Assembly: GCA_034433515.1 (NCBI GenBank)
Contig: DAOUAL010000004.1
Location: 48,697-112,696, forward strand
Reading direction: 5' to 3'
DNA length: 64,000 bases
Origin: Anaerolineae bacterium
GTDB lineage: Bacteria; Chloroflexota; Anaerolineae; UBA4142
Part shown: in pieces, positions 1,592 through 50,393 of the stretch
Position numbering within the stretch: the stretch's first letter is position 1
Layout of the letters: each line of letters begins with the position of its first letter
The notes under the pieces: generated by a model
Database searches by the model: none
What the model saw: only the letters and a program-made list of their open reading frames with translations
Told to the model about the DNA's origin: nothing
Made by a program: the position numbers and the translations under genes

Positions 1592-1637
1592 GACGCGGAC
1601 AAAATCAAAAAATAATCTGTCCTCCGTCGTTTTCCCC

Positions 1638-1791
1638 CAGGACTGTTGCAAAGTCCCTTGACAGGCGGTTAAAACCACTGCAATCACTACCCGAAGCCGA
1701 CCTGCGTCGGCTGGTTTTAGTCGCCGTAGGGCGACTTAGGGTGTTGGTTGCTGCGACTTCAGTCGCCCGATCCGACTTTGCAACAGCCCTG
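1638..1791 (+). mobile_element. MITE family A, copy 1 (154 bp)
   Basis: 18-bp terminal inverted repeats CAGG(A/G)CTGTTGCAAAGTC with 1 mismatch. Perfect 10-bp target-site duplication CGTTTTCCCC (1628-1637 and 1792-1801). Homologous copy at 27722-27918. Confidence 0.9.
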
Positions 1792-1801
1792 CGTTTTCCC
1801 C

Positions 1802-1830
1802 TTGACACTCGTTTCCGCATCGGCTATAAT
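1802..1830 (+). promoter_or_regulatory. Consensus sigma70 promoter upstream of herA
   Basis: TTGACA (1802-1807), 17 bp spacer, TATAAT (1825-1830). Confidence 0.85.
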
Positions 1831-1925: not shown

Positions 1926-3716
1926 ATGGACGCAGTCGGTTACATCGTTGGCGAAGTGAGCACAAACGAATTCACATTTGTGACGAATCGCGAAATTGCA
2001 CCGCCACGTTTAGAGTACCTGGTCGTCAAGGTGCACGAACCCCATCGCACAATTGATGTATTGGCTCAAGTAACATCGCTCAGCGTTTCCTCGCGTTTGC
2101 TCAACACCTCGCTGGGCTACAGCGAAGTGGAAGCGATCCTCAATCGTTTGAAATCGTCGCCGCCGATTGTGCAAGGCACCGCCCAAGTGCTGGGCTATAT
2201 TGACGAAGCAGACAATCACAAAATCAAGTTTCCACGCCACGCCGCCATGCCCGGCACCGGCGTTTCGCTCGCGCCCGATGAATTGCTCCGCCAATTCTTT
2301 TCCGGCATCGAAAGCGGCATCGAAATTGGCACGCTCATCAATCGCGATCAAGTGGCGGTGCAACTCAATCCGAATGGCTTGCGCCGGCATCTGGCGGTGA
2401 TCGCACAAACCGGCGCGGGCAAATCGTACACCGTCGGCGTCATCCTCGAAAAACTGTTGCAACTCGGCGGAACGATTGTGGTTTTCGATCCGAACAGCGA
2501 TTACGTGTTGATGCGCCGCGACCCGCAACATCGTGTAACCTCGTTTGCCGACCGCGTGGAGATTTATCGGTTGCCCACCACGCGGGCCGGGCGCATCACC
2601 GACGAAGAAATCGGCGGATCGAAAAGATTCACGATGCAATTTGCTAAACTCGAAGTGGAAGAAATTTGTTCAATGACCGGCATTGCGCCCACTGCGACCA
2701 ACATTCGCAAAGCGATTCAAACCGTCTGGGACAAGTTGCAAGGCACCGATTACACACCGAAACAATTCCGCGAAGAACTTGAAGCGTTGGCAAATAGCGG
2801 CGAGGTAGGCGCACCCTCGATGGGAACGCCGCGCAGCACACGCCCGCTTAGTCCGGCGATTGGTGATGAAGAGGAGTTTGATCGAGCGTTCGGCAAACGG
2901 ATCGCGGAAAAAGCCAACGTGGATTGGGATGATTTTGGCAAGCCCGAACCCGAAATCCGCGAAAACAACCACAAACCCACGAAAGACAAAATCCCGTCGT
3001 TCGATGCGATCAGCGGCGCGCAAAAAGCGATCAAGTACATCGAACTGCTCGAGCGGGTGGATATTTGGGGCTATGAAGATGTACCGATGCAAGAACTGTT
3101 GCGCCCGATGACGCTTTCGGTGATTGATGTCGCCGGCGTGGATCAATGGATTTCGGAATTTATCGTCGCCAAAGTGTTGAATGAGGCGTGGGGCATCGCG
3201 GTCAATGAAGGACTGCCGCGACCGGTCTTTTTCGTTTTGGAAGAAGCGCACAATTTTGTGCCGGGCGGTCAAGGTGCGCAATCGCATTCGGCGGGCATCA
3301 TCAAACGCATCGCCTCCGAAGGACGCAAGTTTGGTTTGTTTATGATTCTCATCACCCAACGCCCCTACAAAGTTCACGGCGATACGCTTTCGCAGTGCAA
3401 CTCGCAAATCATTATGCGGCTCACCAATCCGCAAGATCAAAATGCGGTGCGTCAATCGTCCGAAGGCATCAGCGAAGGATTGTTGGCGGATTTGCCCGGC
3501 TTGAACGTCGGCGAGGCGGTGATTCTGGGTCCGCTCGTGCGCGTGCCGGTGATGATCAAGGTGGGTCAGCGCGAATCGAAAGAAGGCGGCAACGATATTG
3601 ATGTGATTGGTGCGCTAGAGCGCGCGCGGAGCGAAGTCAAGACCCTGGTCCGTGAGCAAAAAGTGAAGGAGGAACGCAAAGCGCGTGGACGAAGTGAATG
3701 GAAAGAAGCGGTGTGA
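1926..3716 (+). CDS. herA: HerA/FtsK-family DNA translocase ATPase with N-terminal HAS barrel (DUF87)
   Basis: N-terminal VGYIVGEVSTNEFTF HAS-barrel pattern, Walker A AQTGAGKS, Walker B VLEEAHNF, and RIASEGRKFG, ITQRP and QCNSQII motifs. Confidence 0.88.
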   Translation: MDAVGYIVGEVSTNEFTFVTNREIAPPRLEYLVVKVHEPHRTIDVLAQVTSLSVSSRLLNTSLGYSEVEAILNRLKSSPPIVQGTAQVLGYIDEADNHKIKFPRHAAMPGTGVSLAPDELLRQFFSGIESGIEIGTLINRDQVAVQLNPNGLRRHLAVIAQTGAGKSYTVGVILEKLLQLGGTIVVFDPNSDYVLMRRDPQHRVTSFADRVEIYRLPTTRAGRITDEEIGGSKRFTMQFAKLEVEEICSMTGIAPTATNIRKAIQTVWDKLQGTDYTPKQFREELEALANSGEVGAPSMGTPRSTRPLSPAIGDEEEFDRAFGKRIAEKANVDWDDFGKPEPEIRENNHKPTKDKIPSFDAISGAQKAIKYIELLERVDIWGYEDVPMQELLRPMTLSVIDVAGVDQWISEFIVAKVLNEAWGIAVNEGLPRPVFFVLEEAHNFVPGGQGAQSHSAGIIKRIASEGRKFGLFMILITQRPYKVHGDTLSQCNSQIIMRLTNPQDQNAVRQSSEGISEGLLADLPGLNVGEAVILGPLVRVPVMIKVGQRESKEGGNDIDVIGALERARSEVKTLVREQKVKEERKARGRSEWKEAV

Positions 3717-3887: not shown

Positions 3888-5063
3888 ATGACTATTCGAC
3901 TAATCTGCACTGCCGATAACCACCTCGGTCGCTATTACGGCAAAATGCATGTAAAGCAACTCGCGGAACGCCGCAAGCGTCTGCGCACCGCGTTCGCGCA
4001 AGCCGTTGACTTTGCGATTGCCAAGCGCGCCCACCTCTTCTTGCAATGCGGCGATTTGTTCGACCGCGAAGCGCCGCCGCCCGCGGAACTCACCTTCGTC
4101 GCGCAACAATTTCAAAAATTGCGCGAGGCAAACATTCGCATCTACGCGATCAGCGGCAACCACGATATGCCCACGTCGAGCGAGGGCGCGACGCCGGTGC
4201 GCATTTACGATGCCCTCCGCGCCGCGCGCGTGTTCACCAAGCGCACCGAAATCGAATTTGATCTCGTCAAGATCGAAGGGCAAACGGTGGCGATCGGCGG
4301 CATCGCACCCGACCCACGTCTTGATGCCAACGCCGATCCGCTCGATGACGTAACGTACACCAAACCAAACGCGGATGTAACGCTGCTTTTGCTGCATTGC
4401 GGTTTTGAAGGTTGTGTGCCGCCCGGTTTTACCGAAGCCATCTTGCCCAAAGCACGCGTCGCCCAGATGCAAGACATTGATTATCTTTTCTTGGGCGATC
4501 TTCATCGCACGCACAAAGCCGTCGTCGAACGTTCCACCGTTATCATTCCCGGCGCGACCGAGCGGATGACCTTTGGCGAAATCGAAGAACGCACCGGCTT
4601 TTACTATGTCGAACTCGATGGCCGCGACGCCGTGAAATTGCAACATCAACCGATCGAGCCACAACCGATGCGGCGTGAAATCATTCGCACCACCGATCTG
4701 CCCCACGACACGCCCACCGAGTACGTGTTCGATAAATTGCACGAATGGGCAGACACCGAACAAATGATGCAACTCCGCCTCGAAGGTCCCCTCGAGCGCG
4801 ACGTGTACCATCGTTTGAAATTTTTTGACATCTGGCGCTTGGGCAACGAACTCAACTTTTATTTCGACCTTGATCGCACAGAGGTGAGATTGAAAAGCGA
4901 AAACGCGAAGGATAGCGGGGGAGGCGGCGAGGTAGTCAGCATTCGTCACGAGATCGAGCGCGTGGCAGACGAGTTTGCCGCGCAACGTCAAGGCGATGAC
5001 CGCGCATTGATCGAAGAAGCGCGCGCGCTGGTGATGGCGCGGCTGGGCAAAGAAGACGCTTGA
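3888..5063 (+). CDS. sbcD: Mre11/SbcD-family metallophosphoesterase DNA repair nuclease
   Basis: Phosphoesterase motifs ADNHLG, GDLFD, GNHD, LLH and LGDLH; PGATERMTFGE; C-terminal capping domain. Confidence 0.85.
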   Translation: MTIRLICTADNHLGRYYGKMHVKQLAERRKRLRTAFAQAVDFAIAKRAHLFLQCGDLFDREAPPPAELTFVAQQFQKLREANIRIYAISGNHDMPTSSEGATPVRIYDALRAARVFTKRTEIEFDLVKIEGQTVAIGGIAPDPRLDANADPLDDVTYTKPNADVTLLLLHCGFEGCVPPGFTEAILPKARVAQMQDIDYLFLGDLHRTHKAVVERSTVIIPGATERMTFGEIEERTGFYYVELDGRDAVKLQHQPIEPQPMRREIIRTTDLPHDTPTEYVFDKLHEWADTEQMMQLRLEGPLERDVYHRLKFFDIWRLGNELNFYFDLDRTEVRLKSENAKDSGGGGEVVSIRHEIERVADEFAAQRQGDDRALIEEARALVMARLGKEDA

Positions 5064-5710
5064 CCAACTCAATCACTGTTACGCAACCAACGCAACTCTC
5101 TGCAAAACAAACGGAACAGCTCCGCGCGATTTATCTCGATAGTTTTCCGTCTTACGAGCGCGCGGATTTTTCGTATTTGCTGAATTCGATTGCACGGGGC
5201 GCGCGATGGTGTTTTACCGCGATGCAAGACGATGAGATGCTAGGCATGGCAATCATCGTGCCGCATGTCGCGTCCGATATTCACTTGCTCGAGTATCTCG
5301 CCGTTTCAAATCAAGTGCGCGGGCGCGGCATCGGCGGACGATTGTTGGATGAGGTCATCACCGCGATACGTACCCGCCCCGGCACTTTGGGCTTGCTCAT
5401 CGAAGTGGAACCGGCGGATGAAGGAAACGAAGCCGAACGACATTTGCGCGCGCGTCGTCTCGAGTTTTATCGGCGACACGGCGCGCGCCTCGTGGAAGGC
5501 GCGCCGGACTATTACGTGCCGATGGCAGACCGTGAAGGCACGCTGCGGATGATATTGCTGTGGTTGCCGTTCACTGCCTCTGCGCGTGTGCCCGCTGGCG
5601 CACAATGGAGTGAATGTATCCTGAACATTTATGCGCGTAGTTACGAATTACCTCGCCAGCATCCTTTGGTGAGAGAAATCTCAGAACATTCTAATAGTGC
5701 ACCAACATGA
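5060..5710 (+). CDS. GNAT-family N-acetyltransferase
   Basis: LEYLAVSNQVRGRGIGGRLL acetyl-CoA motif A and RRLEFYRRHG motif B. TTG start overlaps the upstream stop. Confidence 0.85.
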   Translation: MTNSITVTQPTQLSAKQTEQLRAIYLDSFPSYERADFSYLLNSIARGARWCFTAMQDDEMLGMAIIVPHVASDIHLLEYLAVSNQVRGRGIGGRLLDEVITAIRTRPGTLGLLIEVEPADEGNEAERHLRARRLEFYRRHGARLVEGAPDYYVPMADREGTLRMILLWLPFTASARVPAGAQWSECILNIYARSYELPRQHPLVREISEHSNSAPT

Positions 5711-5798
5711 AAGTGCGTGGTGACAACTCGATGTTTAGCCACGTCTGTCAACGTTTTCCCATCAGTCTGGTATGCAACTATTTCATGTTGTTGCACTA
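5695..5798 (-). mobile_element. MITE family B, copy 1 (IS630/Tc1-like, TA duplication)
   Basis: TA-GTGCACCAACATGAAA ... TTTCATGTTGTTGCAC-TA: 16-bp inverted repeats (1 mismatch) flanked by TA. About 90% identical to 28395-28492 in opposite orientation. Confidence 0.85.
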
Positions 5799-5812
5799 GA
5801 TAGGAACGACCG

Positions 5813-17915: not shown

Positions 17916-19088
17916 ATGACCTATCTCGCTCGCGCCCACGCGCTCAAAGATAAACTCATCGCTTTGCGCCGCGATTTTCATCGTCATCCCGAACTAGGTT
18001 TTCAGGAATTTCGCACCGCGCAAACAATCGTTGAGGAATTACACAAACTTGGAATCGAATGTGAGACCGGCATCGCCAAAACCGGGGTGGTGGCGTATCT
18101 GGGTGAAGGCACGCCCCGCTTTGCCTTGCGCGCCGATATGGATGCGTTGCCGATTCAAGAGGCGAACGAGGTCGAGTACAAATCCCAACAGCCGGGTGTG
18201 ATGCACGCTTGCGGACACGATGCGCATGTGGCGTGTTTGCTGGGCGCGGCGAGGTTACTCAACGAGGATTTCAAAGCCGGCAAACTCAACGGATCGGTCA
18301 AGTTGCTGTTCCAACCCAACGAGGAAAATTCCGGCACGGCCGGTCCCAGCGGCGGACAATTGATGGTGGAAGCCGGCGTGCTCAACGATGTGGACGCCGT
18401 CGTAGGTTTGCATGTGATCAGTTCGGCTCCGAGCGGTCATGTCTTTGTGCGCCCGGGCGCGTTTATGGCGGCGGTAGATACTTTTGAAGGCACCGTGATT
18501 GGGGTGGGCGGGCACGGCGCATATCCGCACGAAGCCCTCGATCCGATTTGGCTAGCCGCGCAAGTGATCAACGCAATTCACGGTATTGTTTCGCGGCGCC
18601 TTGATCCACTCAAACAAGGCGTGATTACCGTAACGATGATTCACGCTGGCACTGCCACGAATATCATTCCCGATGCGGTGCAACTCACAGGCACGATTCG
18701 CAGTTTCGAAGAAACGGTGCGGCAAGAATTGCACACCGATTTGGAGAAGGCATTTTCGATTGCGCGGACAATGGGAGGCGAGTACAACTTGCGCATCATT
18801 CCCGGCTACCCAGCCACCGTGAACGATCCCCAGATGGCAGAGTGTGTCCGCACGATAGCCACCGACTTGGTCGGTGCCGAGCGCGTCCACGAAGCCGGTA
18901 TGCAAATGGGTGCGGAAGATTTTAGTTTTATGGCGCGCGTTAAACCGGCAACCTTTTTTAACTTGGGTGCCAAAAAAGATAATGTGCATCGTCCCCATCA
19001 TAACGCCCTATTCGATATTGACGAAAACGTTCTGCCTACCGGCGCGGCTTTGCTTGCCGAAGTAGCACGCCGTTATCTCATGCAATAA
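17916..19088 (+). CDS. M20D-family amidohydrolase
   Basis: RADMDALP, HACGHDAH, FQPNEE, GGHGA.PH, GAEDF and HH..F motifs. Confidence 0.92.
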   Translation: MTYLARAHALKDKLIALRRDFHRHPELGFQEFRTAQTIVEELHKLGIECETGIAKTGVVAYLGEGTPRFALRADMDALPIQEANEVEYKSQQPGVMHACGHDAHVACLLGAARLLNEDFKAGKLNGSVKLLFQPNEENSGTAGPSGGQLMVEAGVLNDVDAVVGLHVISSAPSGHVFVRPGAFMAAVDTFEGTVIGVGGHGAYPHEALDPIWLAAQVINAIHGIVSRRLDPLKQGVITVTMIHAGTATNIIPDAVQLTGTIRSFEETVRQELHTDLEKAFSIARTMGGEYNLRIIPGYPATVNDPQMAECVRTIATDLVGAERVHEAGMQMGAEDFSFMARVKPATFFNLGAKKDNVHRPHHNALFDIDENVLPTGAALLAEVARRYLMQ

Positions 19089-19130
19089 AAAAGGCGGGCA
19101 TTTTGCCCGCCTTAAGATCTTTTTTTGCGG
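19089..19130 (+). terminator. Intrinsic terminator
   Basis: AAGGCGGGCA-TTT-TGCCCGCCTT stem with a downstream T-run. Confidence 0.6.
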
Positions 19131-19288: not shown

Positions 19289-22200
19289 GTGCCGTCCAAA
19301 CTATCGCTCCATCTCAGTTCGTACCCCAATCGTACGTTTGAAATCCTCGGCAAGATGAAACCCAGCGTGGTCAAGGTGTTCAACCAATCGAGCGAGATCA
19401 ATATTGGCGCGATTATGGGCACCTCGCCCAAGACGATTATTGTCTATCGTCAATACACCAATCTCGATTATCGAACGACCACGGCGGATCAATACTTTGC
19501 CGAATTGCAAGACACGTTCAACAAACTTGCCGGGCGCGGCTTGTTGTGGGAGGGCATCAACGAACCGATTGTCAGTTCGGTTGAAGATGCCAAAGCGTTG
19601 AATAAATGGTGGGTGCGCTTTGCACAAATTATGCACGAACGCGGCGAAAAGGTGGCAGGGTTTTCGTGGTCCACCGGCAATCCCACGCCCGACAAATTGA
19701 TGCAAATCATTCCGTATATCACTGAAGCCGCCGCCGCAATGGACGCGCACGCCTTTCACGAGTACTATACCACGTGGGGCAAAGAAGCCGATTGGGGCAG
19801 GTATCGTGTGTTTGAGCAAGCCCTGCCGGCGCACGCGCGCAAGCCGGTCGTCATCACCGAAGCCGGCTTGGACGATAATGGTGATCCCAAGACCGGCGGA
19901 TGGAAAGGCAAGATCTCCGCGCAAGAGTATCTCAACATTCTCAAAAAATACGATGCGTTACTGATGCAAGACCCCTACGTCTTGGGTGCAACGGTGTATC
20001 AATGGGGCGATGGCAATTGGCCCTCCTTCGAACTCGATTCGATAATTGACTTGGTTGCCAACTATGTGGCGGCGGCGGGACAAGGCGTGGTCATCCCCTC
20101 GCCCTGGCCCCTCCCCTCGTTTGGTCCCGTTTTCAACGCGATGCCTTCTACCATCTCGCTCGGCGATTCCGCCACGCTCTCGTGGCAAGTCAATGATGCC
20201 GACGCAACTGTCTATCTCGATGGACAAAGGGTGGCGGCACAAGACACGCGTGTGGTTACGCCAACCGAGACCACTACGTACACCCTCAAAATTGTTTTTG
20301 CGGATAACACTGAACAAGAGTTGACTGCAACCGTAACTGTAACAGCGGTCAACGCGATTCGTATTACGAACGTAACATTCGATCCACCTTCGCTGCGCGT
20401 GGGCGAGTTGTTGAATGTGAGCATCACGGTGCGCAACGATACCACCGAAACGTTGCAAACGCAGGGACCCGATCCCGGCTTTATCTATGATGAAGGCGAT
20501 ACCTTCCAATCACGCGGCTTTCCTTCGATTGCCGGCGCGGTGCGCGTGGGCGTGGATTTTGGCGACAGAAGCGGCATTGATCATCCCTATCGTTGGGGAC
20601 TGGGTGCGCCGCTGGCACCGGGACAAAGCACCACCATCACCGGCGCGATTCGGATGAAGACAGTTCAGGACACGAATTATTGGGTCGGCTTGGCGCGTGA
20701 GTTGGTCGTGTGGGTGCAAGATCACAAAGGCGATCAAACGATCACGGTAACGGCGGGCGGCCAAGTGCAAATTACGAATGTGCAATTCACGCCAACTACG
20801 CTTCGCTCTGGCGAGTTGCTGAACGTCAGTATCACCGTACGCAACGATACAGCGGAAACGATTCAAACCCAAGGACCCGATCCCGGCTTTGTCTATGACG
20901 AAGGGGATACGTTCGATAGTCGCGGTTTTGGTTCGATGACGAATGCGTTTCGCGTGGGAATTGATTTCGATGGCCGCGCCGGGATTGATCATCCCTATCG
21001 TTGGGGCTTGGGCGCGCCGCTCGCGCCGGGCCAATCGGCAACCATCACCGGCGCGATTCGGCTCAAGACGGTTCGCTCGATCAATTACTGGGTGGGCTTG
21101 GTGCGCGAACATATCGCGTGGCTTCAAGATCGGCAAGGTGTGCAGAATATCACGGTAACCGCCGCGCCGAGTGGAATCGTTGAACTTACGAACGTGCAAT
21201 TCACGCCCACCACGTTGCGCGCCGGCGAATTGTTGAACGTGAGCATCACGGTACGTAACGGCACCAATGAGACTTTGCCAACTCAAGGACCTGACCCCGG
21301 CTTTGTGTACGAAGAAGGCGATGATTTTCGCAGCCGCGGTTTTGGCGAAGTCAAAAATGCATTCCGCGTGGGAATTGATTTCGACGGACGCTCTGGAGTT
21401 GACCATCCGTATCGCTGGGGCTTGGGCGCGCCGCTCGCGCCGGGACAAACAGCCACCATCACCGGTTCGATTCGATTAAAAACCGCGCGGACTGCCAACT
21501 ATTGGGTCGGCTTGGTGCGCGAGCAGGTGGCGTGGTTGCAAGACAAGAAAGGCGGGCAAGCGATCACGGTAACGCCGGCGGGCGTACCACAAATCACTTC
21601 GGTGACCTTTACCCCGCTTTCGGTTCCCTCCGGCAACGTGTTGAACGTGAGCATCACGGTCAAGAATGAATCCGCCGATACCTTGCCCACGCAAGGACCC
21701 GACCCAGGATTTGTGTACGAAGAAGGCGATACGTTCCGCAGTCGTGGCTTTACCGAAATGCGCGGCGCGTTCCGGGTGGGCATTGATTTTGATGGACGCA
21801 CCGGGATTGATCATCCCTATCGCTGGGGCTTGGGTGCGCCGCTCGCGCCGGGGCAATCGGCAACGATCACCGGCTCGATCCGGCTCAAGACGCAACGCAC
21901 AGTCAAGTATTGGGCGGGCTTGGTGCGCGAGCAAATCGTTTGGATGCAAGATAAATTGGGTACGCAATCCATCGTCGTTACGCCGCCCGTGGCACCGCCT
22001 CCACCACCCACGCCCACGCTAGAGGTTTCACCAACGACGATCACCGCTGGACAATCGGCAACTGTAACGTGGAACGCGCCAAGCGCAACCTCGGTTTCAC
22101 TCAACGGTCAGCCAGTCAGCATCCAAGGGACACTCACCGTTTCGCCCACGCAAAACACCACGTACACCTTGAACATCGTTTATGCCGATGGCAGTACGCG

Positions 22201-26479: not shown

Positions 26480-27601
26480 TTATTTGCTGATCGTAACTTT
26501 CGCGGTCATATTCCAACGCAAGCGTGCGTCTTGTTGATCGAGGGTGATGACCAAGGTATAAACAATATCTCCTTGCCGATTATCGCCATAGCCCTTGATG
26601 CTGGCAACCTTGCCGTTCAATTCCAAATCCGGAATCGCGTCAAACGATACTTTGACTGCATCGCCTTCTTTGACGTTGACCACATTGATTTCGGTGAGAT
26701 CCGTGGTCTCGATTTGCATCGTTCCAAGATCGGCGAGGCGCGCCACCGGTGTACCCGCAATCACGGATTCGCCGGGTTTGATATCCAACGAAGCAATCGT
26801 TCCATCGAACGGCGCAACCAATTTGGCGCGTGCCAATTGTTCCGCCGCCAGATCGCGCGTGGCTTGCGCCGCTTTGACATTCGCTTCTGCTGCCGCCAGG
26901 TCTTCGGCAGTCGGCGTCAACTTTGCCAATTGACTCTTGGCGGTTTGGACGGCGGCAAGCGCTTGCTGAACCTGCGCTTCGGGTGGATTGACTTTGTTGT
27001 TGTACGCGGCTTGGGCTTTTTGATAATCGAGCCAAGCATTCTGCAATTGCAAACGTTGGGGCAACATCCCGGCATTCGGATTGCTATCGCCGCCCACCGC
27101 ATCATACGCCGTTTGTGCTTGCTGGAGCACGGCTTGCGTTTTTTCCAAATCGGCTTTGAGCGCGGCAAGTTCGTTGGGATCCGGCTTGAGCAATTTGTCG
27201 TACGCGGTCTGCGCGGCTTTCAAGTTTTGTTGCGCTGCTGCAAGTTCTTCCGCTGTCGGACCACGCTTGAGTTGATTCAACCGGGCTTGCGCCGAAGTCA
27301 GATTGGCTTCCGCTTGAGCAAGTTGCAATTCCAATTGCTTGGAATCGAGTTGCGCAATCACTTGACCGGCTTTGACTTGCGCACCAACGGCAACCGGCAC
27401 TTGGGCGACGACGCCCGCCACTTGAAAAGCGAGCGTGGCAGAGCGCGCCGGCACCACTTTGCCTTCCGCCACCACACGACTACTCGACTTGATGGCACTC
27501 ACCGTGGGTTGGGGTTTCGGAGTGGGGGTAGGCGTGCTGGTACACGCGAGCGTACCAACAGCGAGCAACCCAAGGACAACGAGCAGAATCAGTTTTTTCA
27601 T
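26480..27601 (-). CDS. Efflux periplasmic adaptor (HlyD/MFP family) lipoprotein
   Basis: Lipobox TLAC, VAEGKVVP, lipoyl half-motifs VAVGAQVKAGQVIA and LVAPFDGTIA, long alpha hairpin and LRWNMTAKV. Confidence 0.9.
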   Translation of the reverse strand: MKKLILLVVLGLLAVGTLACTSTPTPTPKPQPTVSAIKSSSRVVAEGKVVPARSATLAFQVAGVVAQVPVAVGAQVKAGQVIAQLDSKQLELQLAQAEANLTSAQARLNQLKRGPTAEELAAAQQNLKAAQTAYDKLLKPDPNELAALKADLEKTQAVLQQAQTAYDAVGGDSNPNAGMLPQRLQLQNAWLDYQKAQAAYNNKVNPPEAQVQQALAAVQTAKSQLAKLTPTAEDLAAAEANVKAAQATRDLAAEQLARAKLVAPFDGTIASLDIKPGESVIAGTPVARLADLGTMQIETTDLTEINVVNVKEGDAVKVSFDAIPDLELNGKVASIKGYGDNRQGDIVYTLVITLDQQDARLRWNMTAKVTISK

Positions 27602-27687: not shown

Positions 27688-27716
27688 ACTATACTACGAG
27701 TTACTAGATTTGTCAA
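27688..27716 (-). promoter_or_regulatory. sigma70 promoter for the efflux adaptor
   Basis: Minus strand TTGACA, 17 bp, TATAGT. Confidence 0.75.
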
Positions 27717-27721
27717 AAAGG

Positions 27722-27918
27722 CAGGGCTGTTGCCAAGTCGGATCGGGCGAATGAATTCGCAACAGAACCCCAAGCCCGCCTACGCGGGCTAATCCAGCCG
27801 CCGCAGGGCGGCTTCGGGTAGGGGGCGCAAGAGTGTACAGACGGGTCGCCGATTCGTCTCTATCACTTGCGCTTGCAGTGGTTTGAACCGCCTGTCAAGG
27901 GACTTGGCAACAGCCCTG
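27722..27918 (-). mobile_element. MITE family A, copy 2 (197 bp)
   Basis: Perfect 18-bp TIRs CAGGGCTGTTGCCAAGTC. Aligns with 1638-1791 in reverse and carries an extra hairpin insert. Imperfect flank duplication TCAAAAA(GG/TA). Confidence 0.88.
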
Positions 27919-28147
27919 TCAAAAATATACCCAAGGTTCGTCGTACGCCAGCACTTACGGTTAACCACGATGCGTTGAACGCTGGCACAAAAACTGGCAA
28001 GCGCGGATAAGAGCGCAACGATGATCAGCCCCATAATCGCTCTGCCTAGCGAAAAGGAAAAACCGAGTCTGAATTTCGCACCTTTGCTAGTGGAATAGCC
28101 TCACCCCTGATCCCTCCCCACGTCGCAAAATGGCATCCGTCACGATT

Positions 28148-28363: not shown

Positions 28364-28394
28364 GCAAAGCAGGGTACGCCGCTCACCTCAGCAC

Positions 28395-28492
28395 TAGTGC
28401 AACAACGTGAAAGAGTTGCAGACCAGACTGATGGGAAGACATTGACAGACGTGGCTAGAAATCGAGTTTTCACCACGCACTTGGGTGCACTA
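28395..28492 (+). mobile_element. MITE family B, copy 2 (98 bp)
   Basis: TA-GTGCAACAACGTGAAA...GGGTGCAC-TA. Aligns with the reverse complement of 5695-5798 with a 6-bp deletion in the right TIR. Confidence 0.85.
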
Positions 28493-28540
28493 CTAGCCGC
28501 AGAGTATAACGATGGATTCGGTGATCTTCCGGAATCAGGA

Positions 28541-34743: not shown

Positions 34744-34772
34744 GTAGAGACGTTGGATTACAACGTCTCTAT
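34744..34772. repeat. REP-like palindrome (GTAGAGACG family)
   Basis: GTAGAGACGTTG-GATTA-CAACGTCTCTAT; same family as 50361-50393. Confidence 0.7.
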
Positions 34773-41000: not shown

Positions 41001-41010
41001 TGAACTAGGT

Positions 41011-41168
41011 GTTAGTCGCTAGTCGCTAGTTGCTAGTCACTAGTTGCCAGTCGCTAGTCACTAGTCTCTAGCGCCTAACGGCTAGCGCCTAACGGCTAAC
41101 GCCTACCGACTAACGACTAACAACTACCGACTAACAACTACCGACTAACAACTAGCGACTAACGACTA
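41011..41168. repeat. Long inverted heptamer tandem array
   Basis: About 8 GCTAGTC-type units followed by about 14 ACTAACG/ACTAGCG-type units, which are their reverse complement. Ends directly at ATG 41169. Confidence 0.92.
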
Positions 41169-43118
41169 ATGAACGAACTCACCACTTTTCTCCAAGCCAA
41201 CATTATCATCATCTACTTTGTGTACGGTCTGGCGCACTTTGTGACCGGGATGGCGGTTGCGTTAGAAAGTGGACGCGCGACGCAATTGCGTCTTTCGCGC
41301 GCTTTGCCTTTCCTTGCCGCCTTTGGCATCACGCACGGCATCAACGAGTGGATTGAAATGTTTTCGATGATCTCTGCCCAAATTCCCACCTTGGCGCAAG
41401 AACCTCGTTGGGCGGAAATGATCAAACTGGCTTGGAAAGGGATTTCGTTTTATTTCCTGCTGGAATTTGGCGTTCGTCTGTTGAGCGAACATGTGCCGCA
41501 GCAACAACGCTGGTTACGTTTGCTTCCCTTCTTTGGATTGTTCACGTGCTTGATCGGTTCGTTCATTATGTATCTGCAAGCCCGGCCCCTGGGCTATCCG
41601 CAACCGGGTTTGGTCGAAGTCTGGGTCAACTATTCCCTAGGTGTGCCGGCGTCTATCTTTTCGGTGATTGCTTTACTGGCTCAGCGGCGCGCCTTCTTGC
41701 GCGACAATATGCCACAATTTGGCGGCGATTCGGTGGGGGCGGCGTTGGCGATTGGCTGGTACTGCGTGCTCGATCAAATCATTGATGAATCCGCCTTCAT
41801 CTTTCCGGCGAACATCCTCAACACCCACACCTTCCTCAACGTGGTCGGATTGCCGGTCGAAATCTTTCGCACGATGGCAGTAACCGCGTTGGCATTCTTT
41901 GTCATCCGCACCTTGCGCGTGTTCGAAGTCGAGTATGCGCAACGCTTGGAAGCAGCGAATCGTGCGCGCTTTGCCGCGCAAGCAGAAGCCACACGCGAGT
42001 TGATGGTCTTGTTTGAAGCGTGCCGCATTCTCGGCACCTCGCTCGATGTCAATCAACTCATTAACGATTCGTTGACCAAGATCGTCAACTCGCTTGACCC
42101 CATGATCGCCGGCTCGGTGTATCTCTACGATGCGCAACATCACGCGCTGACCTTGCGCGCCTGCAAAATGCGTTCCGAACTATCCTCGTTGAGCCAAGCC
42201 GAGATCGCTGCCGAACAACGCGCCGCGCACGAAGCGTACGACAAATCGGAGATTGCGTACGAGTCCGAGCTGCAAGCCGGCACCTCGTTTGTGGCGGTCC
42301 CGTTGGTGTCACAGGGCAAGACCGTAGGCGCATTGACGTTGGCGCATCGCGCGGCATTTTCAAATTACGCCGTGATTCAAACGCTGGCGCGGCAACTGGG
42401 GATTGCCTTGGAGAATGCTTATCTCTACAGCGAGGTGCAGGAAAAGGAAAAACTGCGCGGGCAACTCTTGGAACGTGCGGTGGCGGCCCAAGAAGAAGAA
42501 CGCAAACGCATTGCACGCGAATTGCACGATGATACCGGGCAATGGCTTACCGCACTGGGCGTGGGCTTGAGCGGGGTGGAGCAAACGATGGCGCAGGATC
42601 CGGAAAAGGCGCAATATCAAATCGCCGAATTGAAAAATATGACGATGCACGCGATTGACAATCTGCGCCAATTCGTTTCCGATCTGCGCCCGGCGATGCT
42701 CGACGATATGGGGTTGGTCTCGGCGTTGCGTTGGCTGGCACAGCAGTACGCTGAGCGAACGGGTTTGCCGATTCACGTCGAAACGGTTGGAAGCAAGCGT
42801 CGTTTGTCATCCCAGGTTGAAACGGTTTTGTTCCGCATCGCGCAAGAAGGGTTGAACAATATCGGACGGCACGCGCAAGCGACCCACGCTCATATCCGTT
42901 TAGAATTTGCACCCACCTTTGTCTCACTCATCGTTCAAGATAATGGTAAGGGATTTGTGGTGGACCAAGTGTTGGGGCTTCACCCCGAACGACGCGCGTG
43001 GGGCTTGCTGGGTGTGCAAGAGCGCGTGGCATTGGTGGGCGGCAAGTTTAATGTGGAATCCGAACCCGGCAAGGGGACTCGGTTGATGGTCGAAATTCCG
43101 ATTACCGACAGCGAATGA
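41169..43118 (+). CDS. Sensor histidine kinase (polytopic membrane sensor, GAF, HisKA_3)
   Basis: About 6 N-terminal TM helices with THGINEW, a GAF-like region, EEERKRIARELHDD, DNGKGF and WGLLGVQER. Confidence 0.9.
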   Translation: MNELTTFLQANIIIIYFVYGLAHFVTGMAVALESGRATQLRLSRALPFLAAFGITHGINEWIEMFSMISAQIPTLAQEPRWAEMIKLAWKGISFYFLLEFGVRLLSEHVPQQQRWLRLLPFFGLFTCLIGSFIMYLQARPLGYPQPGLVEVWVNYSLGVPASIFSVIALLAQRRAFLRDNMPQFGGDSVGAALAIGWYCVLDQIIDESAFIFPANILNTHTFLNVVGLPVEIFRTMAVTALAFFVIRTLRVFEVEYAQRLEAANRARFAAQAEATRELMVLFEACRILGTSLDVNQLINDSLTKIVNSLDPMIAGSVYLYDAQHHALTLRACKMRSELSSLSQAEIAAEQRAAHEAYDKSEIAYESELQAGTSFVAVPLVSQGKTVGALTLAHRAAFSNYAVIQTLARQLGIALENAYLYSEVQEKEKLRGQLLERAVAAQEEERKRIARELHDDTGQWLTALGVGLSGVEQTMAQDPEKAQYQIAELKNMTMHAIDNLRQFVSDLRPAMLDDMGLVSALRWLAQQYAERTGLPIHVETVGSKRRLSSQVETVLFRIAQEGLNNIGRHAQATHAHIRLEFAPTFVSLIVQDNGKGFVVDQVLGLHPERRAWGLLGVQERVALVGGKFNVESEPGKGTRLMVEIPITDSE

Positions 43119-44193: not shown

Positions 44194-45858
44194 ATGCCAC
44201 CCAAATTCTTCATCACCCATTCATGGAAAGACATTGAGTTTGCTAAACGCCTGACCGACGACTTGCGCCGGCACGGGTTGGAAGGATTTTTCGACGCCTA
44301 CTCGATTCAGCCCGGCGACGACATTGCCTCGCGCGTCGCGCATGGATTGGAAGAGTGCGACGTTTACGTTCCATTATTGTCGCCTGCTGCTGTTGGGTCC
44401 AAATGGTGCGAACTGGAAATCAACGCGGCGATCAACTTGAGTCTGGAACCAGATCGTAATGGCAGACCGCGCATCATTCCCGTTGTTGTCGTGCCGTGTA
44501 AATTGCCGACGCTCTTGCGCGGTCGTTTGTACATCAATTTTCACCAACGTTACGACGACGCGCTGAAGCAATTGTTGGCAGAATTTGGCGTGACGGTTCA
44601 ACCACCCGCGCCATCACAACCAACCCACGCCACGCCCACCGCCGAGCCGCCGAAACCTGCGCCTACACCATCGCGTCCCCAGTCCACACTCTCGCGCGAT
44701 GAACTGGCGCATCTCTACACCGAAGCACGCGCGTTACAAAGCGCAGGCAACTTGCGCGATGCCGCCGCACTGTTTGAAAAGATTGGTGATTACCGCGATG
44801 CGCCTACGCGCTTGCGAAAACTCCAACTCTATCTTGCCGCCGACGAGTTAATGAAACAAGCGCTGGCGGACAAGGACGACCGCACCGAACCGTGGCTGGA
44901 CGCCCACGCGCGCTTGGAAGAATTATTGCAACTCGATCCGCAGTTTCTGGACGCGCGCGCCCGGCTGGACACCGTGAACCGTTGGCTTGCACTGCCAGAG
45001 GCATACGAACGTCTGCTGGACGCGTTGGATGTGGATGATTGGGCAAAAGCGTTCCCGTTGTTCGAGCAAATCCGCAGCGTCAAGCCGACTTACAAACGCA
45101 CCCAAATTTTATTTGAGCACGCGTGGCCGCAAATGGTTCAAGCTGGCGTAACGAAAAAGGTTGGCAAAGATGGCAGAGAAATGATGCTTGTCCCGGCGGG
45201 CAAGTTTGTGATGGGCGAAGGCAGTGACGCACATGAAGTTTATCTCGATTCATTCTACATTGATCGCTACCCTGTGACGAACGCGGATTACAAAAAGTTT
45301 GTGGACGCCACAAAACATTCAGCCCCACCCCATTGGCAGAACGGAAAAATCCCGCAGGGCAAAGAAAACCATCCCGTCGTCAATGTGACTTGGGATGACG
45401 CGAACGCGTACGCGCAATGGGCAGGCAAGCGTTTGCCAACCGAAGCGGAATGGGAAAAGGCAGCAAGTTGGGACGAGATTAAAAAACAAAAACGCGTCTA
45501 TCCCTGGGGTAACGATTTTGACGCGGGCAAATGCAATTCATCCGAATCGGGAATTGGAGACACCACGCCGGTTGGAAAATGCTCACCACAGGGAGACAGT
45601 TTCTACGGTGTCGCAGATATGGCAGGCAACGTGTGGGAATGGTGTGCAGATTGGTACGACGAGAACTATTATAAAAATTCACCGAAAGAAAATCCCACAG
45701 GACCTGCTTCAGGACAATATCGGGTGTTGCGCGGCGGTTCTTGGTTCAACGATCAGAGCCTCGTGCGCGCCGCGTATCGCGTCAGGCTCAATCCTTTCAG
45801 CAGGTTCGGGAGCTTCGGTTTTCGCGTGGTCGTGTCCCATTCTGACTCTGGGCTCTGA
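44194..45858 (+). CDS. TIR domain - helical/TPR-like - FGE-sulfatase (C-type lectin fold) protein; probable DGR target
   Basis: TIR_2 (FFITHSWKD...SKWCELEI). FGE motifs [36 protein letters not shown] and RVLRGGSW...GFR. Confidence 0.9.
   Translation: [554 protein letters not shown]
45721..45840 (+). other. Putative diversity-generating retroelement variable region (VR)
   Basis: Only 13 A in 120 nt, versus 26 in the preceding 60. Most invariant codons lack A. 12 of 13 positions that are Asn in typical templates are NNC/NNT codons. Confidence 0.7.
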
Positions 45859-45892: not shown

Positions 45893-45925
45893 GTAGGGGC
45901 GAGGTTACCTCGCCCCCGCCCCTAC
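45893..45925 (+). repeat. GTAG-type REP palindrome upstream of RAYT
   Basis: GTAG-GGGCGAGG-TTA-CCTCGCCC; identical core at 46213-46239. Confidence 0.85.
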
Positions 45926-45941
45926 CACCGACGGATATGTT

Positions 45942-46463
45942 ATGAAATACGATCCATCAAAACATCATCGTCGTTCCATTCGTTTGAAAGATTATGATTA
46001 CAGTCAAGCCGGCGCATATTTTTTAACCATCGTCGTCCGGAATCACGAATGTTTGTTGGGCGATGTGGTGGATGGGGAAATGCGGGTAAACGGATTTGGC
46101 AAGATGGTCCAAAAATGCTGGGATGAATTGTCGGTGCATTATTCCAATGTGGAACTGGACGCGTTTGTGGTGATGCCCAATCATGTACACGGGATTGTGG
46201 TGATTGTGGACCGTAGGGGCGAGGTTACCTCGCCCCTACAATTGCATGATCAACCAACCTTGGGTCGAATAATCGGATATTTCAAATATCAATCTACCAA
46301 ACTCATCAACGAATTGCGTGGCACGCCAGGCGCGCCGGTATGGCAACGCAATTATTTCGAACACATCATCCGTAACGACCACGATTTCGAACGCATTCGT
46401 GAATACATTGCCTACAATCCTGTGGGTTGGCAAATGGATGATGAAAATCCCAACCACACATGA
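45942..46463 (+). mobile_element. REP-associated tyrosine transposase (RAYT, IS200-like HUH)
   Basis: HHRRSIRL..YDYSQ.GAYFLTI, MPNHVHGI (HUH), WQRNYFEHIIR and YIAYNP (catalytic Tyr). Confidence 0.93.
46213..46239 (+). repeat. REP inserted in-frame inside the RAYT gene
   Basis: GTAGGGGCGAGGTTACCTCGCCCCTAC, encoding RRGEVTSPLQ. Confidence 0.85.
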
Positions 46464-50333: not shown

Positions 50334-50362
50334 ATTATAGTCGAATCGTGTGGATGTGTAAA
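50334..50362 (-). promoter_or_regulatory. dnaJ promoter (leaderless)
   Basis: Minus strand TTTACA, 17 bp, TATAAT, then 7 nt to GTG. Confidence 0.7.
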
Positions 50363-50393
50363 GTAGAGACGAGTCGCCAACTCGTCTCTACTT
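50361..50393. repeat. REP-like perfect palindrome between divergent promoters
   Basis: AAGTAGAGACGAGT-CGCCA-ACTCGTCTCTACTT. Confidence 0.85.

Follow-up and report, generated by a model that had tools for sequence, protein, structure and literature searches.

Two copies of a short transposon without genes were found in the window, by which we mean the whole 64,000-nucleotide stretch of DNA that was analysed: copy 1, which is reversed, occupies 1638-1791 and copy 2 occupies 27722-27918. Both are non-autonomous ISAs1-type MITEs, with the ends of ISAs1-family IS elements of about 1.3 kb. Copy 1 is a recent insertion and the element was recently mobile. The interior contains an 88-nt core, which consists of hairpin 1 followed by a 4-pair long-range helix, P0, with hairpins 2 and 3 between its arms. 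Judged from the aligned copies from several genomes, it is the pairing of this core, not the sequence of its stems, that is kept. We consider it rather probable that the core fold of this recently inserted ISAs1-type MITE is kept in active lineages and that the double changes in its stems arise via template switching. A MITE with conserved hairpins is a known kind of element; its apparent targeting upstream of promoters is an unexpected extra lead.

The 18-bp TIR CAGGRCTGTTGCMAAGTC has four exact matches in the window, as two inverted pairs, where 0.17 occurrences were expected. The ends pair at 17/18 positions in copy 1 and at 18/18 in copy 2. Position 13 is C at both ends of copy 2 and A at both ends of copy 1, and in other genomes C13 was absent from all of the roughly 150 ends among the matches listed. 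Position 5 in copy 1 is G at one end and A at the other, resulting in a G.T pair on one strand. The target duplication matches in 10/10 positions in copy 1 and in 7/9 in copy 2. Both copies are overlapped by spurious ORFs alone and a transposase gene is absent from both. An initial annotation of this DNA had already given the coordinates and sequences of both copies, the perfect 10-bp duplication of copy 1 and the co-variation of the TIRs, and all of these were found as described (Table 1).

Table 1. Coordinates of the two MITE copies, their structural elements and the adjoining promoters in the 64-kb window.
Feature	Position	Strand	Sequence or remark
MITE copy 1	1638..1791	-	154 bp; left end (beside hairpin 1) at 1791
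Copy 1 target-site duplication, first	1628..1637	.	cgttttcccc; single copy in L222
Copy 1 TIR, T-end	1638..1655	+	CAGGACTGTTGCAAAGTC; position 5 changed to A in the T-end alone
Inward TTGACA within copy 1 T-end	1658..1663	+	also in L047, where the full IS has it at its transposase-upstream end
Long-range helix P0, copy 1	1689..1742	-	arms 1739-1742 and 1689-1692, ACCC/GGGT, around hairpins 2 and 3
Hairpin 3, copy 1	1695..1712	-	AGCCGAC-GCAG-GTCGGCT
Hairpin 2, copy 1	1719..1736	-	AGTCGCC-CTAC-GGCGACT
Hairpin 1, copy 1	1753..1766	-	GCGAC-TGAA-GTCGC
Copy 1 TIR, hairpin-1 end	1774..1791	-	CAGGGCTGTTGCAAAGTC
Copy 1 target-site duplication, second	1792..1801	.	cgttttcccc; abuts the -35 box
Host promoter TTGACA-17-TATAAT (12/12)	1802..1830	+	directly after the copy 1 duplication; reads into the HerA-like gene (1926-3716)
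Host promoter TTGACA-17-TATAGT (11/12)	27688..27716	-	starts 5 nt away from copy 2, on its hairpin-1 side; directed into the HlyD-like gene (26480-27601)
Copy 2 target duplication, decayed, left	27713..27721	.	tcaaaaagg; right partner tcaaaaata at 27919-27927
MITE copy 2	27722..27918	+	197 bp
Copy 2 left TIR	27722..27739	+	CAGGGCTGTTGCCAAGTC; C at position 13
Hairpin 1, copy 2	27747..27760	+	GCGAA-TGAA-TTCGC
Helix P0, copy 2	27767..27819	+	arms 27767-27770 and 27816-27819, around hairpins 2 and 3
Hairpin 2, copy 2	27773-27790	+	AGCCCGC-CTAC-GCGGGCT
Hairpin 3, copy 2	27796-27813	+	AGCCGCC-GCAG-GGCGGCT
Hairpin 4, copy 2, long, imperfect	27825..27872	+	inner part similar to GTAGAGACG...CGTCTCTAC, a palindrome present at 34745 and 50361
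Inward TTGACA within copy 2 T-end	27893..27898	-	TTGACA
Copy 2 right TIR	27901..27918	-	likewise C at position 13

Scanning species-representative genomes for the end sequence gave at least 111 loci, mostly in Chloroflexota MAGs and some in Acidobacteriota, Streptomyces and Nocardiopsis. Pairing of the ends among the matches listed yielded at least about 40 short elements of 104-406 bp. The same TIR also bounds elements of 1.29-1.34 kb in L024, L030, L047, L055, L102 and L106, which are flanked by 9-10-bp duplications. The intact ORF of the L106 element contains the DDE_Tnp_1_assoc and DDE_Tnp_1 domains and scored 211.8 bits on the NCBIfam ISAs1 model NF033564 (cut-off 70), compared with 22.9 bits on the IS4 model NF033592 (cut-off 115). 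The transposase responsible, previously called IS4-like, is thus to be assigned to ISAs1 instead. Members of the ISAs1 family have CAGGG ends and 8-10-bp duplications (ISfinder). A duplication of 9 or 10 bp was present in 29 of the 44 paired elements, short and full-length, that had flanks long enough among the matches listed; 10 bp was the commonest length in this set and one duplication had 11 bp. The window element shares with the ISAs1-family IS the identical 18-bp TIRs starting with CAGGG, the target duplications of 9-10 bp and an inward TTGACA at one end, as at the transposase-upstream end in L047, but it has no transposase gene and its interior is the 88-nt core. An autonomous IS with the same ends is thus present in other genomes, whereas neither an autonomous copy nor an ISAs1-type transposase was found within the 64-kb window.

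The nearest named homologues of the HerA-like protein encoded beside copy 1 belong to Chloroflexota MAGs, and the window thus probably comes from a member of this phylum. A 98 %-identical homologue was found in GCA_037440625.1 (L222), where the intergenic region equals that of the window base for base, minus the 154-bp element and one CGTTTTCCCC. L222 is an exact empty site, with a single CGTTTTCCCC, no element and identical flanks. Copy 1 was thus inserted recently, and an active partner exists or existed very recently. In farther relatives, with 95-82 % HerA identity, the element was absent and the promoter was retained. For copy 2, the sole other contig with an identical HlyD-like protein ends inside the element. 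The TIRs, the target duplication and the empty site in a near-identical genome bear out the earlier statement that we are not dealing with a decaying IS relic. Two Logan contigs from SRR11582170, L113 (1-29) and L226 (1-28), carry exact window genes and break 28-29 nt inside copies 1 and 2; contigs would be expected to break there if that sample contains the element interior more than once.

In both window copies an outward near-consensus promoter adjoins the same end, the one beside hairpin 1. Over all loci listed, the positions of -35-like hexamers had their peak 18-19 nt beyond the element ends, and those of -10-like hexamers 41-42 nt beyond them. A hexamer at those offsets was present at 36/134 (27 %) of the listed non-actinobacterial ends vs 2.2 % of random windows, and at 0/18 of the listed actinobacterial ends. 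The window copies lie 8-13 nt nearer to the promoter than these peaks. Among the matches listed, a promoter-like site was found at exactly one end in 19/44 paired elements, and where one end carried an internal TTGACA the promoter stood at the opposite end in 9 cases and at the same end in 2. The pattern is common to MITEs and to full ISAs1-type IS with CAGGGCTGTTGCAAAGTC ends; in the full elements L024 and L047 the promoter lies at the 3' end of the transposase gene and points in the same direction as that gene. Since the empty site and the MITE-less relatives keep the promoter, it predates the insertion. That the promoters are part of the element was rejected, as the flanks are alike in the consensus hexamers alone, the distances differ (10 vs 5 nt) and the promoter is element-free in relatives. 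The internal TTGACA was likewise rejected as an active promoter, with no acceptable -10 after it in either window copy. Taken together, the hexamer positions look like a target specificity for sites upstream of promoters in elements with these ends. No report of promoter-upstream insertion by ISAs1 was found in the literature searched. The hexamer positions also point to a safe-haven strategy, with insertion at a fixed distance upstream of promoters, and we know of no bacterial DDE transposon for which one has been described.

Hairpins 1-3 differ between copy 1 and copy 2 by five compensated pairs and no broken one, and the tetraloops TGAA, CTAC and GCAG are identical. When ten changed stem sites are placed at random, the chance that they form five complementary pairs is about 1e-7. 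In ssDNA folding the two copies scored z = -6.8 and -7.1 against shuffles. The initial annotation had stated that every stem change is compensatory, which applies to the five stem pairs of hairpins 1-3 but not to TIR position 5, altered at one end only in copy 1. Helix P0, present as ACCC/GGGT in both window copies, had been overlooked. The additional long hairpin reported for copy 2 (hairpin 4) is present, but is imperfect itself. The hairpin-4 segment also starts in the related sequence L223 (GTCGCAAGCGTTCAC vs GGCGCAAGAGTGTAC in copy 2), so by this comparison the hairpin was more probably lost from copy 1 than gained by copy 2.

Further relatives of the core were found in an Anaerolineales MAG (L013, ends intact), on a metagenomic contig from a relative whose HerA is 95 % identical (L223), and in a relative with 84 % HerA identity (L230, no recognisable TIRs). 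L223 was found independently. Copies 1 and 2 are written c1 and c2 below. All relatives have the same order, in which hairpin 1 with a TGAA(A) loop is followed by a spacer with GCAAC and by P0 around hairpins 2 and 3. All 23 pairs are Watson-Crick, with 0 G.T pairs, in each of c1, c2 and L223; L013 has 19/23 Watson-Crick pairs and 2 G.T, and L230 13/23 and 5 G.T. Helix P0 covaries in L223, where it is ACGC/GCGT, and in L013, where it is GCGC/GCGC and is lengthened to 7 pairs (GCGCGAA/TTCGCGC). The sequences c1, c2 and L013 together have 97.1 % of cells paired and 7/23 pairs changed on both sides, compared with 0-1 in slid controls. With all five sequences 94.7 % of cells pair, against 25-44 % with the partners slid, and 7 pairs show double-sided change; across the 3- and 5-sequence alignments the slid controls paired in 23-47 % of cells. 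Pairwise, c1, c2 and L223 are 4-5 compensated pairs apart with no other stem change, and L223 differs from each window copy by four compensated pairs, one of them in P0, with none broken.

As read from these alignments, the pairing of the core is maintained. The earlier claim of a maintained structure was strengthened by the further copies, which added covariation in all helices; this covariation comes from five sequences, two of them decaying, and stays below R-scape-grade statistics. The initial annotation would have been contradicted by further copies with random stem breakage and no significant covariation; those found speak partly in its favour, as L223 carries compensated changes alone, whereas stem-breaking changes are present in L013 and L230, which look like old decaying copies. 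The element is pseudo-symmetric, and orientation calls are thus ambiguous for decayed copies such as L230.

Covariance model R1, run over the 111 listed genome loci, retrieved the known members and their opposite strands alone. A metagenome scan with the right-end pattern gave a single match, L112, which has the end but not the core in common. In viral contigs the left-end pattern had no match and the core pattern matched chance 15-mers alone. No match was obtained in a protein search with both-strand translations of the element, directed at spurious ORFs over other copies, and Rfam 15 gave none at gathering thresholds, the only sub-threshold match being CRISPR-DR28 (26.1 vs 35 bits).

In pairwise comparisons of the core, changes were counted at 8-10/46 stem sites, 5-9/36-41 non-stem sites and 0-1/12 loop sites. 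Three to four of each four to five compensated pairs are of the transversion type, for which no wobble route exists, and G.T pairs are absent from c1, c2 and L223. Template switching during replication has been documented to produce multi-base compensatory stem changes in one step (Monttinen and Loytynoja 2022, PMC8794818). If stems were changed in this way, they would evolve at the pace of the spacers, mostly by transversions and without wobble intermediates.

In the explanation that we favour, an ISAs1-family transposase encoded elsewhere would cut at the 18-bp ends and insert the element, creating the 9-10-bp target duplication; copy 1 was recently inserted directly upstream of a strong promoter that was already there. 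Lineages that still yield new copies would have to keep the single-strand fold, possibly because it is needed for mobilisation or for tolerance beside promoters; copies that no longer move would decay, and fresh copies would pair perfectly. For the double changes, a single step of intrastrand template switching in replication would be the most likely origin, as their pattern suggests. The conserved loops, the covarying 4-pair long-range P0 and the existence of decayed copies fit selection on the fold, while the pace of stem change and the transversion bias fit one-step templated double changes. Other observations speak against this explanation. The full-length ISAs1 elements are without the 88-nt core, so that the transposase does not need the core as such, and in other MITE families with these ends many stem changes are uncompensated, e.g. 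between L049 and L080. Moreover, the perfect hairpins of L223 beside a degenerate left TIR fit maintenance in place better than selection for mobility.

Maintenance could also be purely mutational, with functionless hairpins in which template switching within quasi-palindromes copies arm mutations across, so that the stems drift neutrally; a fold-back of the whole element would then have copied the A-to-C change at TIR position 13 between the ends. This is rather unlikely in our view, even though stems diverge at least as much as non-stem sites (10/38 vs 8/75, and likewise in the core counts above), the double changes are mostly of the transversion type without wobble intermediates, and the mechanism itself is documented (PMC8794818). 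The TIR covariation, which lies in protein-binding sites of double-stranded DNA, is not readily explained by selection on RNA structure, and the reverse-complemented hairpin loop (GAA vs TTC) between two copies of a MITE family in L235 points to palindrome dynamics at the DNA level. Against neutral drift, however, loops and junctions are far more conserved than stems and spacers, as the loop counts illustrate, and P0 covaries twice although it has just 4 pairs with arms about 50 nt apart. Correction is also not general, given 4 non-Watson-Crick pairs in L013 and 10 in L230, and the mismatch at TIR position 5 of copy 1 was left uncorrected. A function for the host is less likely still. Here the core would be a cis-acting RNA module, e.g. 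a 3'-end stabiliser or terminator-insulator, delivered by the MITE to intergenic regions and selected by the host locus by locus. Its multi-branch fold, long-range helix and conserved loops are typical of RNA, the non-Watson-Crick pairs are mostly G.T on one strand, and co-transcribed repeats with an action on mRNA are already known in the Correia elements and REPs (PMC2649163). The core of L223 is perfectly paired at the 3' end of an acetyltransferase gene despite its degenerate TIR, and on the + strand copy 1 presents a terminator-like hairpin followed by GGTTTT downstream of the ORF 944-1591. Copy 2, however, has no T-run after hairpin 3 and is situated between divergently oriented genes, where incoming transcription is not obvious, the orientation to the upstream gene is inconsistent between copy 1 and L223, and the Rfam comparison above matched no family.

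It is similarly doubtful that the 88-nt core is a selected mobile module acting as a single strand, RNA or ssDNA, on a promoter-seeking carrier of the ISAs1 clade that places it at a fixed spot upstream of sigma-70-type promoters, where it would be needed for targeting or mobilisation of the short element, or act in cis on transcription into or out of the promoter region. If this were true, the element would be a promoter-targeted carrier of structured regulatory cargo and not a plain deletion derivative. Very improbable is the idea that the hairpins are REP units, moved or homogenised by the RAYT-like tyrosine transposase of the window, and that the ISAs1 ends are no more than the borders of a REP cluster. 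GTAG-headed palindromes do lie beside and inside the RAYT-like ORF (45942-46463), the palindromes GTAGAGACG...CGTCTCTAC located at 34745 and at 50361 are similar to hairpin 4 of copy 2, and one Oscillochloris MAG has MITEs with these ends whose interiors are also found there without TIRs. Hairpins 1-3, however, lack a 5' GTAG (GTRG) head, and their order, their spacing and the enclosing P0 are conserved as a single unit. As dispersed REPs they were rejected, since neither the 64-kb window nor the roughly 780 kb of related loci outside the family contained another instance. The initial annotation had spoken of REP-like units, one with a GTAG/CTAC loop; this did not hold, as the loop is CTTC in L223, L013 and L230 and the palindrome that flanks the RAYT-like ORF, GTAGGGGCGAGGTTACCTCGCCCC, is unlike hairpins 1-3.

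The RAYT-like ORF scored 23.4 bits for Y1_Tnp and 66.9 bits for REP_Tyr_transpos, the latter below its cut-off of 80. A palindrome, GTAGGGGCGAGGTTACCTCGCCCCTAC, lies in frame within its coding sequence at 46213-46239, just past the HVH motif, and a near copy was found upstream of the ORF at 45893-45925. Directly upstream of the RAYT-like gene, the ORF 44194-45858 encodes an N-terminal TIR domain fused to an FGE-sulfatase-like domain. The second family of GTAG-headed palindromes, GTAGAGACG...CGTCTCTAC, is present at 34745-34771, at 50361-50393 and within 27825-27872. Its three innermost stem pairs are TTG/CAA in one free copy and AGT/ACT in the other, complementary in both, while the copy within MITE copy 2 contains uncompensated mismatches.

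In the other MITE families that have these ends, the interior is unrelated, and it is likewise hairpin-rich. Several of them conserve stems far better than spacers: the Oscillochloris family had 0/44 stem changes vs 5-11/88 in the spacers, and L029 vs L109 had 0/13 vs 40/92. In others the stems decay freely, e.g. between L049 and L080. In the Oscillochloris MAG (L003, L026, L088, L107) the MITE interior CCCTCACCCCCCAGCCCCCTCTCCC...GGGAGAGGGGCTGGGGGTGAGGG was also found at several sites without the ends, which means that the MITE there encloses a genome-wide palindromic repeat of the host. Because the interior of a MITE in one genome is such a repeat, the hairpins may be captured host repeats rather than functions of the element.

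L235, a relative with 81 % HerA identity, contains at 4459-4659 and at 18930-19130 a further MITE family, about 190 bp long, with other ends (CAGACAATTTAAGATAA). It has several hairpins; the loop of one is TGAA, and a helix of GCGC surrounds a hairpin. The hairpin loop that is reverse-complemented between its copies reads GAATGAAATTC vs GAATTTCATTC. Within the window, a repeat of about 100 bp at 5698-5808 and, inverted, at 28385-28497 is 86-91 % identical between its copies, has ends like CTAGTGCA...TGCACTAG and is probably a second MITE family. Its copy at 28385-28497 overlaps the start of a ParA-like ORF at 28397. In L223 the family-A core stands at the place that matches the copy at 5698-5808, downstream of the acetyltransferase gene.

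REPINs and REPs, mobilised by RAYTs, are likewise short intergenic repeats that keep their hairpin potential while the sequence varies, and compensatory change in small bacterial mobile repeats is already known from REPINs (Bertels and Rainey 2011, PMC3116915). REPINs, however, lack an architecture of TIRs and target duplications and consist of two inverted GTAG-headed REPs moved by a tyrosine (HUH) transposase, whereas the window element has the ends and duplications of a DDE transposon and its hairpins 1-3 are without GTAG heads. Correia (CREE/NEMIS) and ERIC elements are closer in being MITE-like repeats with TIRs, beside genes and with stable hairpins, and Correia elements alter the expression of neighbouring genes (PMC2649163). 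They differ in their ends and hosts and have no known ISAs1 partner; Correia elements also make promoters at their own ends, while here the promoters pre-exist in the target. Template-switch (quasi-palindrome) mutation resembles the pattern seen here in its one-step multi-base compensation with stems that stay perfect, and predicts stems with Watson-Crick pairs only and double changes of any type. The published work concerned RNA genes (PMC8794818); here the subject is a mobile element, and the mechanism is suggested by the pattern in five sequences.

The locus offers a recently active short ISAs1 substrate with a defined empty site. To our knowledge, almost nothing is known of how ISAs1-family elements move. 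Since its stems change at the pace of the spacers and yet are perfectly paired in active copies, the hairpin core is also a compact natural test case for compensation by selection on two mutations vs one-step templated mutation.

Two further repeats of the window lie apart from the MITEs. At 41004-41169, two arrays of about 66 nt, built from a 7-nt unit (GCTAGTC-like), are inverted relative to each other and 31 nt apart. At 20330-21996, four tandem repeats of about 408-414 bp with 72-75 % identity probably correspond to a repeated protein domain.
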